Shown piece by piece: positions 5,480-58,075 of a stretch of 64,000 bases of DNA. A program made the position numbers and the translations under genes. Origin of the DNA: Octopus vulgaris (lineage: Eukaryota). The notes under the pieces were generated by a model. That model saw only the letters and a program-made list of their open reading frames with translations, searched no databases and was not told the DNA's origin. Positions within the stretch are counted from its first letter, which is position 1. Each line of letters opens with the position of its first letter. Location: the NCBI GenBank assembly GCA_951406725.2, contig OX597819.1:83328001-83392000 (forward strand). Direction: 5' to 3'.

Positions 5480-7422
5480 ACTTTACTCTTACGGTTCTGT
5501 TGATGACTAACGAGCCCTGTTCTTCACAAACATACACTACTGCAAAAATTGCAGACTAAGCCTTCCCTATGCATTACATTAGCAGTGCGTTTTTGAGCAG
5601 CACGCTTAAATTCTTCATGAAGAATACGTGCTCTTTCAAAAGTATCAACTCCCTCCTTTACTTGTTTTCTCCAACCGTGGCGATAACAAGCATTGCTCTC
5701 CCAATCAGCCTCCTGCATTTCACAGGCCTTTAATGAGGCCTTTACACAGTCCTTAAATCGCAGTCTTGGACTCTGTCGGGATCGCTTTCCACTAACAAGT
5801 TCCCCATATAACATCTGTTTAGGAATCCTGCTAATCATACATTCTAACAAGGTGTCCGGTCCAACGTAACCGGTGTTTGTGCACCAATCGCCTCAATACT
5901 CAGGATACAGGCTTTCCTCAGGACCTGTGTATCTGGAGTTTTTAAGGTCCAGCCAACGTTCAGAATGTTTCAGACGTTTTTGATGGAAGCGTTCAAGGTC
6001 CTTTACATGACGTTTGTAAATGGTACATGTCTCACATGAGTAAAGGAGTGATGTCAGTACACGTGCATGGTACACAACAATTTTTGTTAACCTTGTGATG
6101 CCATGGTGGGACCAGACACGAGACTCAAGAGACCTAAAGTAATCAGTTGCTCTCTGCAACCTGAAAGATATTTCATCATCCAGGGAGCAAGAACGGTTGA
6201 GTGTGGTGCCCAGGTAGACAAACTTGTCAAACACTTTCAGTATTGTTCCTTCAACGAAGATAGCTGGTTCCACATATGGGTTTCCTGATGCAGACTGGAA
6301 CATTACAAAAGTCTTGTCCAGGCTAATGCTGCGTCCAAATTCCTTACAAGAAGCAGAAATATGATTCACATGTATTTGCATATCATCTGCTGCATGAGTG
6401 ACAATCATCTGCATAAAGTATGTCATAAATAAGAGACTGGAAAACTTTTGAATTGGCAGCAAATTAACGCAGGTTAAAAAGACGGCCAGAAGGTCGATAC
6501 TAACATTTATCCCAGGAGAGCTGTCCACATCAAAAGCATGAGTAAGAGTAGCAGCAAAGTACAGAGAAAAGATAGTTGGAGCAAGGATGTTACCCTCCTT
6601 GACACCATTCTCTACAGGAATTGGTCCCGTCATGCCACCACCAACATTGACCCAAGCCTCCATCCCATCATGAAATGATTTGATTAATGATACAAAGTGA
6701 TCCGGACATCCAAGTTTGTCACGTATTTTCCATGGAGAGACCCTATTCACAGTATCAAAGGCCTTGGTTAAATCAATGAATACCTGGACAAGATCCATAT
6801 TCTGCTCATAGCACCTTTCCTGCATCTGTCTCGCTGTGAAAACCATATCCATCGTTCTTCTTCTAGATCGGAAACCACATTGAAATTCAGACAGGACATC
6901 ATTTACAAGACACCAGTTCAGGCGGGTAAGAAGAATACTTGCCAGAACCTTGCCAGCAGCTGATAGTAGGGCAATACCTTTAAAGTTGCCACATTCTACT
7001 CTGGCTCCCTTTCCCTTATAGAGAGGAAGAATAATTGCATCCTCCCAGTCCTCAGGCATTGCACCATCCTTCCAGATTACACTATTAAGTTCATGAAGGG
7101 ATTGTATGAAGTAATCACCATCAAATTGCAGTCCAAATGCCATTCTTACCAGGTGCCTTACCAAGATCCAATTTACTTATGCTGTCATTACCTCATCTAT
7201 TGGGAGCGTGGAATTTTAGGAGCTAATGACAGGTCTCTTGCATAGTGTCAATCACTGCTTCGTCCACAACTGACTTACGGTTTAGGAGTTCAGAAAAATG
7301 TTCTCTGTTGATGTAGTAAACAGAGTGGAAGACACCTTGGAAAGCAAGGGCACTGATGCAGAGCTCTTAGGCCCATAAACTTGCTTCATAAAATGGTAAA
7401 AGCTTCTTGCTGTCATTTTCAT
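5480..7422 (-). mobile_element. RTE-clade LINE, 3' half (reverse transcriptase), decayed
   Basis: ORF 5893..7164: W.DAII.PLYKGKG...CGNF.GI.LLS.AGKVL, QCGFR, FIDLTKAFDTV, GVK.G..LAPTIF, F.YLG. ORF 5524..5850: RIPKQMLYGEL..GKR...RFKD..KASLK. Confidence 0.92.
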
Positions 7423-7930
7423 TAGGTCACTTGTGAGGCTCTCATGTGTGCTACAGGTAACATGGAACTCAGTACAATCTATTGCTTGGTTGGATTGTTG
7501 GTGACTAAACAGGCAACTCCACCAGGCTAAACTAGTGAGGAGGGTTGCTAGAAACCCAGCAGGACTAAAGACAAGACCTATTAAAATTCAACGACTATCT
7601 AGCAATAGCACGCAGAAATTCCAGGATGGTGTCTCGTGTGCTGGAAGACAACTGGGAGTGAGGTACCCCTTAGCTCTTGTTGAAGCATGTCCCTAGGAGA
7701 AGGCTACTCTGATATAAAATCAGATATGCAGAGGATAGCATTGGACATTTTGGGCATCTTTTGCTAATGCTTGAGATCATGGCGCTCCCACATCCCTGAG
7801 CCAGCAACTCATATTGGCACTAGACATCTTGCCTCACCTTGTCTCTGGATAATGTCAATAGAGTGGAGAGGGTCTGTGAGGTGTCGTTCAAACCCAACTG
7901 AAACTAAAATTTTGCACAGGCATTGCTGAC
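7423..7930 (+). mobile_element. Probable RTE 5' leader/UTR, inverted relative to the RT half
   Basis: Collinear with 22081-22570 (aggtcact..ggtaacatg..gactaaac..gtgaggagggt..ctaggagaa..ttgcacaggcattgc) and abuts the RTE RT fragment. Confidence 0.6.
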
Positions 7931-9789: not shown

Positions 9790-10432
9790 GGGAAGATGAA
9801 TAGCAATGACTCATGCTTCTGTAGCTTTGCGAGAAATGCGAACTTTACATCACAAGCACTCATTTTATGCACAGAGGTGATCACACAACAACGTGGATGT
9901 ACCCAAAGTCTAAAGATTGGTACTTGCTGGATTATGTCATTATTCGCAAGCGTGACACCTGTGACATTTGTTATGTCAAGTCCTTTCATGGTTCGGAGTG
10001 CTGGATGGACCACAGCCTGCTGCGAGCAAAGTTTCGGATGATGATCAGACTGAAAGAAAGAAGAGGGCCAGTTGGCATTCCTTGGCGTCTAAATGTCCAT
10101 AAGACATGTGACGCTGTGGTGAAGATAGGGCTTCAGAATCGTTTATCCAGTACTGAAAATACTGCAGCGTGGAAAGATTTTCAAGACCAGGTTTTTCAAT
10201 GTGCAGCTGAAACACTGGGGTACGCTACTGCCAGACACAGGGACTGGCTTGATGAAAATGATGCGGAAGTTCAGCGACTGCTGGTGATAAAGCACCATGG
10301 CCACAATGTATTACTGCACAAAGGACTTTCAGTTGTGCAGCGAAATCTAGCACTTGCCCACTACAGTAGTGTAAAATCACTACTGCAGCGATCTCTGCAG
10401 AATACATGGCGAGAGGGTCTTGCTCGTGATGT
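9790..10432 (+). mobile_element. RTE LINE APE-endonuclease/linker fragment
   Basis: TTWMYPKSKDWYLLDYVIIRKRD...GSECWMDHSL and HRDWLDENDAEVQRLL are typical RTE endonuclease C-terminus and linker motifs. Confidence 0.85.
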
Positions 10433-10611
10433 TCATCATCCGGAACTTTGTTCGCACCAGGCTGTGGTCTGCCCAGCACTGCGAACCATTAAAGGACTTG
10501 ACATTACAAATGTCAGAGACGTCATGCTTGCGAATGATGACACAATCCAGCAAGTGTCAAACTTTAGACGTTGGATGCAAAAATACATACATACATACAT
10601 ACATACATACA

Positions 10612-21990: not shown

Positions 21991-22028
<38 letters not shown>

Positions 22029-22080
22029 ATGTATGTATGTATGTATGTATGTATGTATGTATGTATGTATGTATGTATGT

Positions 22081-22630
22081 CAGGTCACTTTCAAGTGCTA
22101 CTGGTAACATGTAACCCAGTACAACCTGTTGCATGGTCGGGTCGTCGGCGACTAAACCGGAAACCCCACCAAGCTTGCTTGGTGAGGAGGGTGTTTATTG
22201 GACACCCTGCGGGATGAAAAACAAAACCCGTCAAAGGGCGGAGGAACTCTTGAGAGTCAACGGTCATCCAATAAATGTCTTAAGGCTGTATCATGCGCGG
22301 GGACATAGAAATAATCGGACTGAATACCCGATCGCGCGGTTAAACCATTGGGAGTGAAGGACTCCTAGCCTTTGTTAGGGCATCCTTCTAGGAGAATGTA
22401 GCTCAGGTAACTGGGATAACTCCGACATAAAACCTGCGACTCAGTGGTTACCGATGATGTTGACTTGTTCTTCTTTTCGAATTATGGCTGCTGTTGCTTA
22501 GTGAGTGGGATTGACTCAGTGCACAGCCTTTCCTCACTTTTAAAAAAAAATCTTCTTGCACAGGCATTGCACGATAACAACATCGATTAAGCTTCGTGCA
22601 ATGGCCATACTCGATAACGAGGGGGCAGCC
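22081..22630 (+). mobile_element. Structured retroelement (RTE-like) 5' leader without ORF
   Basis: GC-rich multi-hairpin segment homologous to 7423-7930, flanked by (TATG)n. Confidence 0.6.
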
Positions 22631-22804
22631 ACTATGTATGTATGTATGCATGCACGTTTCTACGTATGTATCTCTGAATATTCTTATTTCTTCAAGAGTG
22701 GGTCAGCGCACATCGCAATTTGTTCTTCTCGTCCTCGATGACATAACGTACGCTTATCGTTGAAAAATCAGAGTCTGCGGTAGCCGTCTCGGAAAATATC
22801 CCTT

Positions 22805-57860: not shown

Positions 57861-57944
57861 TATTTGTATATATTTTTATTTTTATTTTATTCTATCTAGT
57901 TTCAGCTCACGAGCTGTGGCCATGCTGGGGCATCGCCATTTAAT

Positions 57945-58043
57945 AAATATGGAACGCTTCACGAATTTGCATGTCATCCTTGCACAGGGGCCATGCTAAT
58001 CTTTCTGTATCGTTCCAATTTTAGTATATGTACTGCCGAAGCA

Positions 58044-58044
<1 letters not shown>
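57945..58044 (-). pseudogene. U6: U6 snRNA retro-pseudogene
   Basis: Reverse complement is ctgcttcggcagtacatatactaaaattggaacgatacagaaagattagcatggcccctgtgcaaggatgacatgcaaattcgtgaagcgttccatattt. It has a G deleted in the ACAGAGA box and two CpG->TpG changes, and a (TA)n tract rather than a promoter upstream. Confidence 0.93.

Positions 58045-58075
<31 letters not shown>

Follow-up and report, generated by a model that had tools for sequence, protein, structure and literature searches.

A probable subclass-1a xrRNA-like fold at the 5' end of RTE retrotransposons in Octopus vulgaris

What kind of RNA stands at the head of an RTE-derived element in the genome of Octopus vulgaris, and what part might it play in forming the 5' end of that element? 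Passages of PMC8501958 and PMC6765202 describe sister RTE elements that make their 5' ends with ribozymes, and an earlier note on this locus had proposed a candidate ribozyme. We examined the RNA in a window, by which we mean the whole analysed stretch of 64,000 nucleotides (contig OX597819.1 of assembly GCA_951406725.2, forward-strand positions 83,328,001 to 83,392,000), and in related sequences from the same genome, metagenomes and viruses. All coordinates are those of the window. The results describe a known fold in a new setting and, judged from sequence, a likely new route to the 5' end of a LINE.

A structured leader on a non-autonomous element

A non-autonomous RTE element begins exactly with the RNA core at 22078..22135 on the plus strand, and autonomous RTE LINE families begin with it as well. 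The element in the window, assigned to family A, extends from 22078 to about 22650 on the plus strand and comprises an RTE 5' leader, a middle portion, an RTE-like 3' end (approximately 22598-22632) and a (TATG)n tail. A (TCTG)n/(TATG)n microsatellite at 21991..22077 (plus strand) occupies the insertion site and is typical of family A flanks. The element has neither an open reading frame nor a tRNA head and is therefore not a tRNA-headed SINE; over the first 200 nt it matches an autonomous RTE leader at 95% identity, and its 3' 51 nt are 76% identical to the tail of that RTE. By this sequence anatomy it belongs with the bipartite non-autonomous RTEs that PMC5786205 describes, sharing the 5'-plus-3' composition without frame or tRNA head but differing in the core itself, as xrRNAs are not described for such elements in the relevant passages of that paper.

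The leader is abundant and is associated with coding elements. The exact core pattern has 1,608 matches in the 2.8-Gb genome and none when reversed, and 40 copies scored out of 1,131 candidates agree with one another to 97-100% across 226 nt. A structural descriptor was passed by 25 of 30 short family A copies, 4 of 30 old family B copies, and 13/30 and 10/20 loci found by protein search. In families A, B and C the protein search recovered endonuclease frames with this leader lying 700-950 nt upstream, and family C, a young family, retains intact frames of 1123 aa with APE and RT domains (Pfam PF03372 and PF00078), an (ATT)n tail and target-site duplications. Many short upstream open reading frames lie in the family C leader. 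We take these families to belong to the RTE clade from their anatomy, a single frame with APE endonuclease and RT, a microsatellite tail and target duplications. Since the proteins of families A and C are only 45% identical and the first 190 nt of their leaders 88% identical, the leader has been either strongly constrained or swapped. A longer form of the short element occurs at three loci (L010, L027 and L028), where about 100 additional bases precede the tail. At L202:2499-2700 the xrRNA-like head is partly duplicated in tandem.

A related leader of family B lies at 7418..7930 on the plus strand as an old, decayed copy in which the PK1 letters (see below) are lost and 22 positions between 7420 and 7560 depart from the family majority; it scores 42.5 bits with the leader-derived covariance model R1 introduced below. 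This copy had been read as preserving the layout through compensatory changes (taggt/atcta), an interpretation that the 29 other family copies contradict: most of them have C at 7423 (27/29), C at 7478 (27/29) and G at 7481 (28/29), which marks the changes as private decay. The family also keeps the pseudoknot strand, with A at 7486 in 28 of 29 copies. RTE-like frame remnants lie at 5503-7419 (minus strand) and 9813-10583, the first ending where the family B leader starts on the opposite strand. Elsewhere in the window, a U6 snRNA copy (57943-58047, minus strand; 97 bits) carries two changes at conserved positions.

Downstream of the core, a second conserved domain occupies 22136..22240 on the plus strand, with stems at 22144-61, 22167-84, 22188-208 and 22210-30. 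RNAalifold on six leaders gave 30 predicted pairs, 13 with changes on both sides, and no Rfam family corresponds to the domain, which possibly serves in translation or protein binding. Two hairpins proposed earlier, caccaag/cttggtg and agggtgt/acaccct, are present at 22167-84 and 22188-208; a third (gtcg-tcgg-cgac) is not part of the consensus fold, in which 22144-48 pairs with 22157-61 instead.

Fold, covariation and likeness to flavivirus xrRNAs

The core is organized as a three-way junction on the plus strand. The strand S1 (U-G-U, 22078..22080) precedes P1, which pairs CAGGT at 22081-85 with ACCTG at 22124-28 and closes the junction (22081..22128). The U-G of S1 is complementary to the junction C-A at 22122-23, giving the pairs U22078-A22123 and G22079-C22122 of a first pseudoknot (PK1), and U22080 is predicted to form a U.A-U triple with A22100-U22120, the right letters standing at the right places for such a three-dimensional contact. 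Within the junction are the P2 hairpin (22086..22097, CACT/AGTG), whose length and sequence differ among families; a single C at 22098, which is the subclass-1a discriminator by the definition given in PMC8374639; and P3 (22099..22121), in which TACTGG at 22099-104 pairs with CCAGTA at 22116-21 around the loop L3 (22105-15). Loop letters CATGTAA (22108-14) pair with TTGCATG (22129-35) to form a second pseudoknot, PK2 (22108..22135), which has 7 bp here and a conserved core of 4-5 bp. Every stem named in the earlier note is present where it was placed. That reading recognized the conserved 5'-end structure but began it three bases late, and so missed the 5' UGU at 22078-80 with its second pseudoknot and base triple.

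The subclass-1a descriptor matches the window through UGU 22078-80, P1, P2, C22098, an A-U second pair in P3, the CA junction and the 7-bp PK2; one further match in the window, located elsewhere, is weak and G-U-rich. The three-way junction with a 5-bp P1 was found in the window and in nine leaders, and PK1, the U.A-U letters, the lone C and a PK2 within the range of 2-8 bp are all present in the window. The ring comprises 15 nt in the window register, or 17-18 if only the covarying core of PK2 is counted; subclass-1a rings have 15-16 nt. Folding energy alone is uninformative (z of -1.89 on the plus strand and -3.28 on the reverse strand). The segment 22078-22135 appears to fit a flavivirus subclass-1a xrRNA at every feature that sequence could test, provided that the ring is counted in the window register, and we hold with high confidence that the core fold is class-1a-like.

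Comparison among nine family representatives provides evidence for the fold. In these, 93% of cells pair and seven pairs have changed on both sides; the covariation score is 0.282, compared with 0.091 in shuffled alignments (none of 500 as high) and at most 0.075 in slid controls, although the number of two-sided changes taken alone does not exceed the shuffles (53/500). These changes fall in P2 (three of four pairs, 100% paired), P3 (two of six, 100% paired) and PK2 (two of seven), none of which was fixed by the search pattern. In PK2, 76% of cells pair and the three pairs nearest P1 often fail; the pseudoknot is poor in L243- and L292-type leaders, and in family D a C-A mismatch closes P2. 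P1 and PK1 never vary among the nine leaders, so that PK1 is without covariation, and S1 is likewise unvarying in 9/9, partly owing to the search pattern. The junction and the loop pseudoknot (22108-14 with 22129-35), both proposed in the earlier note, are upheld by this covariation and are beyond chance.

A scan of the whole window with Rfam returned only a microsatellite-driven miRNA match at this feature. When 22060-22300 was scanned, the best of four matches was RF01415 (Flavivirus_SLIV) at 22074-22145, with 22.6 bits and an E-value of 0.069 against a gathering cut-off of 54.5, which is not reached. RF03547 (Flavi_xrRNA) gave no match in the same scan, RF01415 was absent from the equivalent scan of a family C leader and from nine metagenome loci, and a genome-wide search with RF01415 gave no matches among the 64 of 84,788 candidates that were scored. 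A score below the cut-off is nevertheless compatible with a true xrRNA, because three of four viral xrRNA loci examined here, all genuine flavivirus sequences, score only 27-30 bits on RF01415 and also fall below it.

These viral loci were recovered with a single pattern that had 24 matches on viral contigs, only four of which pass the structural descriptor. The four lie near the 3' end of contigs of 10.7-10.9 kb that carry flavivirus DB/CRE elements, three with matches above cut-off and the fourth (L125) below it, together with an NKV xrRNA match of 46 bits; these elements mark the four as flavivirus 3' UTRs. Of the 26 core letters, 20 agree between the window and each of the four first xrRNAs (xrRNA1), the six differences making three compensatory pairs, and 16 agree with two second xrRNAs; the viral loci had been chosen by a pattern sharing those core letters. 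A further comparison used R1, a covariance model built from the nine non-viral leaders, which scores the window core at 82.7 bits by construction. With this model the four viral xrRNA1s reach 28-36 bits, whereas the best of 20 motif-matched viral controls has 23.7; the two second xrRNAs were not recovered. Three chance prokaryotic matches at 21.6-25.6 bits come close to the lowest viral score.

Compared with the subclass-1a xrRNAs of mosquito-borne flaviviruses (RF01415 and RF03547; described in passages of PMC8374639, PMC5760640, PMC8571300 and PMC13161572), the core has the same three-way junction and 5-bp P1, 2-bp PK1, letters for the U.A-U triple, a C separating P2 from P3, a pseudoknot of 4-7 bp made by L3 and a hairpin downstream, and in the window register its ring also has approximately 15 nt. 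The first four pairs of P1 are equal, its letters being identical except for one compensatory pair, and PMC13161572 reports P1 as fully conserved in mosquito-borne viruses. The PK2 of 7 bp may be set beside the robust type described in PMC8571300, in which PK2 exceeds 5 bp. The differences are that the fold stands singly at a retrotransposon 5' end rather than in tandem in a viral 3' UTR, that two pairs flanking the junction are U-A instead of C-G, that L3 is longer and PK2 begins directly after P1, and that an RTE-specific domain follows without DB or CRE; Rfam scores are below cut-off here and activity is predicted. The unrelated plant-virus xrRNAs, which lack a three-way junction, give according to PMC8374639 an earlier example of an xrRNA placed upstream of coding sequence, as they make translated subgenomic RNAs.

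Could the likeness be fortuitous, or a passive remnant left by a viral 3' UTR that had integrated? The motif is short and the Rfam E-value of 0.069 leaves room for such a reading, yet distant families covary, and neither DB nor CRE elements adjoin the core in the Rfam scan of 22060-22300. In 300 Mb of random sequence there were 11 motif matches and no descriptor passes, a chance rate below 1 in 300 Mb; a loose descriptor was passed twice in 512 kb of shuffled window; and the RTE-lettered pattern had three matches in 596 Gb of prokaryotic genomes, none of which passes the descriptor. The octopus genome gave no Flavi_NS5 match in a search run without a positive control. We consider chance or relic scarcely credible. 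The one match of the octopus genome to the flavivirus-lettered pattern fails the descriptor, and a search of the viral contigs for RTE proteins found none. A pattern for the downstream domain had ten matches in viral contigs, all judged by their flanks to be chance.

The proposal of a new self-cleaving ribozyme, which would cut near 22076-78, deserves separate consideration. Its appeal lies in the 5'-end position, at which HDV-like or twister ribozymes are known from RTE families (passages of PMC5786205 and PMC8501958), and in the sharp boundary that a fixed cleavage would also yield. The earlier note had itself found that the RNA fits neither consensus, and this is borne out: covariance models for twister, hammerhead and the other Rfam ribozymes gave no match in the window, in 22060-22300 or in a family C leader. 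A relaxed HDV descriptor had no matches in families A, B and C, a weak test as it did not recover its own control fold. By-eye mappings of HDV-like and twister ribozymes onto the region were dropped, the Rfam scans being without a ribozyme family and the nested double pseudoknot P1-P4 of HDV with its catalytic C in J4/2 not being found. The HDV-like ribozymes at the 5' ends of R2, RTE and L1Tc/Ingi elements (PMC5786205, PMC6765202) resemble this core in position and in likely job, namely release from a host transcript with an uncapped, protected end, but are catalytic, have another fold and gave no match at the window core. The twister T-variant of the Schistosoma Perere-3 RTE, in the account of PMC8501958, shares the clade, the 5'-end placement and co-transcription from host promoters; it differs by its twister fold and cleavage, and partners for its L4/L1 pairing were not found here beyond a GAGGG likeness. 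The conserved letters are, moreover, accounted for by the xrRNA fold, a non-catalytic mechanical block, and the number of additional bases differs among insertion junctions, from 0 to 4. We therefore rate a ribozyme as very improbable, although the underlying idea of a role in 5'-end processing may be right. Cleavage by HDV-like ribozymes leaves a 5'-OH.

Insertion junctions and the formation of the 5' end

The point at which an exonuclease would halt can be compared with the element boundary. Subclass-1a xrRNAs of viruses block Xrn1 without proteins. Passages of PMC5760640 place the Xrn1 halt 5-6 nt before P1 and therefore 2-3 nt before U22078, while PMC13161572 gives two positions before PK1 and PMC7749634, for another virus, 5 nt before the PK1 pairs. 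From the first of these distances and the family C junctions we predict an XRN halt site at 22075..22076 on the plus strand, 5-6 nt before the base of P1.

Junctions were assessed at 60 family C loci, of which 48 have the leader start; 13 of these were without a 3' end found, 14 were unclear and 21 had a defined target duplication. Among the 48 copies, the start letters G-U-C are kept in 47, 48 and 48, and the base before the U varies; only copies with intact starts entered these counts. At seven of the 21 defined junctions the flank directly meets the start or overlaps it, at 11 there are 1-4 extra bases (two bases in six, three in two), and three are ambiguous because of microsatellites. The modal number of extra bases is thus 2 (2-3), coinciding with the Xrn1 halt on viral xrRNAs; a ribozyme or start site 2-3 nt upstream would leave like junctions.

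These data bear directly on whether the RNA, while containing a working xrRNA, starts instead at an internal Pol II promoter 1-3 bases upstream, so that the knot would protect it only after decapping. G is enriched at -1 (15/32 in a 32-locus family from another host and 17/48 in family C) and could be a reverse-transcribed cap, hence a sign of such a promoter; long 5' transductions are absent from the 21 defined junctions; and the conserved downstream domain could hold promoter elements. A single added G, however, occurs at none of the 21 defined family C junctions, and 9 of the 11 clear extra sequences begin with T, an unusual start for Pol II. The initiator-like TCAGGT would start inside P1 and lose UGUC, yet UGUC stays while flanks vary. 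An internal promoter is accordingly, in our estimation, unlikely.

An xrRNA-shaped fold might also be retained for another job, such as binding of the RTE protein, ribosome recruitment or 5' junction formation, without stalling nucleases in cells. The variability of PK2, the conserved domain that follows and the short upstream frames of family C are consistent with this, as is the report in PMC6765202 that R2 5' pseudoknots bind the R2 protein. PMC12397905 states that only tandem constructs of flavivirus xrRNAs are functional in cells, single ones being weak, and the leaders here carry a single xrRNA-like core, which counts against the trimming interpretation favored below. On the other side, PK1, the triple and the discriminator C are kept, whose known role is to close a ring about the 5' end, and the predicted halt site is where the boundary of the element lies. 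We regard this reading as distinctly improbable.

We favor the interpretation that the RTE-leader knot stops XRN1/XRN2, excises the element RNA from host transcripts and shields its uncapped 5' end, and we consider it reasonably likely on the sequence evidence. The element would be transcribed inside host RNA by read-through, presumably as part of debranched introns or of decapped or cleaved transcripts. The 5' end would be threaded through the ring, and an XRN enzyme, loading on the upstream 5'-monophosphate, would stall there, two to three bases before the knot. An uncapped, protected RNA would be left, to be translated and used in target-primed reverse transcription, and new insertions would include copies of the 2-3 unprotected bases. 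The knot module and the HDV-like or twister ribozymes that sister RTE families carry would then be exchangeable for one another. A comparable role has been proposed in PMC11331408 for the HDV-like fold of R2, as cap substitute and exonuclease barrier.

Spread among RTE branches and biological meaning

Related cores occur in other hosts. A metagenome scan found at least 120 loci, 29 of which pass the descriptor (one, L222, is mis-parsed); the passing matches listed comprise 17 members of a 32-locus short-element family, a 7-locus cluster and five singles. The invariance of S1, P1 and junction in these matches is partly preset, because the search pattern fixes those letters. Members of the 32-locus family (L227 and 31 related loci) come from another host, begin at the corresponding position, up to which their flanks are unrelated, and are elements of approximately 230 nt with an xrRNA-like head, a short domain and an RTE-type tail; the leader of this type resembles that of octopus family D. 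Among the matches listed, only one passing metagenome locus (L198) lies upstream of an APE frame, which is 26% identical to that of family C. Three further descriptor passes (L279:201-273, L280:287-358 and L229:1295-1363) have the flavivirus-type C-G pairs, and neither viral nor retroelement context was found for them.

Within the octopus genome, a pattern-independent protein search found the leader in one of 30 loci of other RTE lineages (L322, 52 bits), and family D carries it, with another PK2 variant, before a more distant APE-RT frame. In a tree of ten endonuclease pieces, leader-bearing elements stand on both sides of a split with 100/100 support; the tree is without family B, without family D (which has no alignable endonuclease piece) and without reference RTE proteins, and L322 is under half filled. 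Neighboring lineages in the tree include one with a probable HDV-like ribozyme and one with another leader. The former, at L309-L314 (for example L314:1169-1253), scores 19.2 bits with RF02682 (E 0.13), below cut-off. The latter, at L349-L353, is a young family with many intact 1095-aa frames whose structured leader (L350:2300-2480) has no Rfam match, is sharply bounded and lies about 620 nt upstream of the endonuclease start; it is a candidate third 5' module. An old origin with losses and the swapping of modules both fit the distribution of the leader.

In the literature searched, with subscription journals outside its coverage, no report of an xrRNA in a retrotransposon was found. In the portions of two related papers that we draw on, the R2 paper PMC12222951 has the term only in a cited reference and the octopus RTE paper PMC9115989 does not mention ribozymes. 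Section 7 of a 2021 review (PMC8374639) describes xrRNAs as characterized in viruses only and asks whether eukaryotic genomes have them. The octopus RTE leader is a concrete, high-copy and testable candidate for a eukaryotic xrRNA, and would, if confirmed, be a case of a flavivirus-type knot working outside viruses.

A wider proposal, which we offer tentatively and hold to be rather doubtful, is that across marine animals RTE elements rely on a genuine class-1a xrRNA by which host exonucleases carve out their RNA, a third route to LINE 5' ends beside promoters and ribozymes, and that this module and the flavivirus xrRNA are homologous, the module, given its deep spread over RTE branches, being perhaps the source of the viral one. 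Were the octopus candidate confirmed, exonuclease trimming would join the routes to LINE 5' ends and explain the defined RNAs of promoter-less RTE derivatives, and the evolution of the flavivirus 3' UTR would be tied to host retroelements. Over a thousand genomic copies would be predicted to be able to stall XRN1/XRN2 on host transcripts, and the leaders would provide compact natural xrRNAs for RNA-stabilizing tools.
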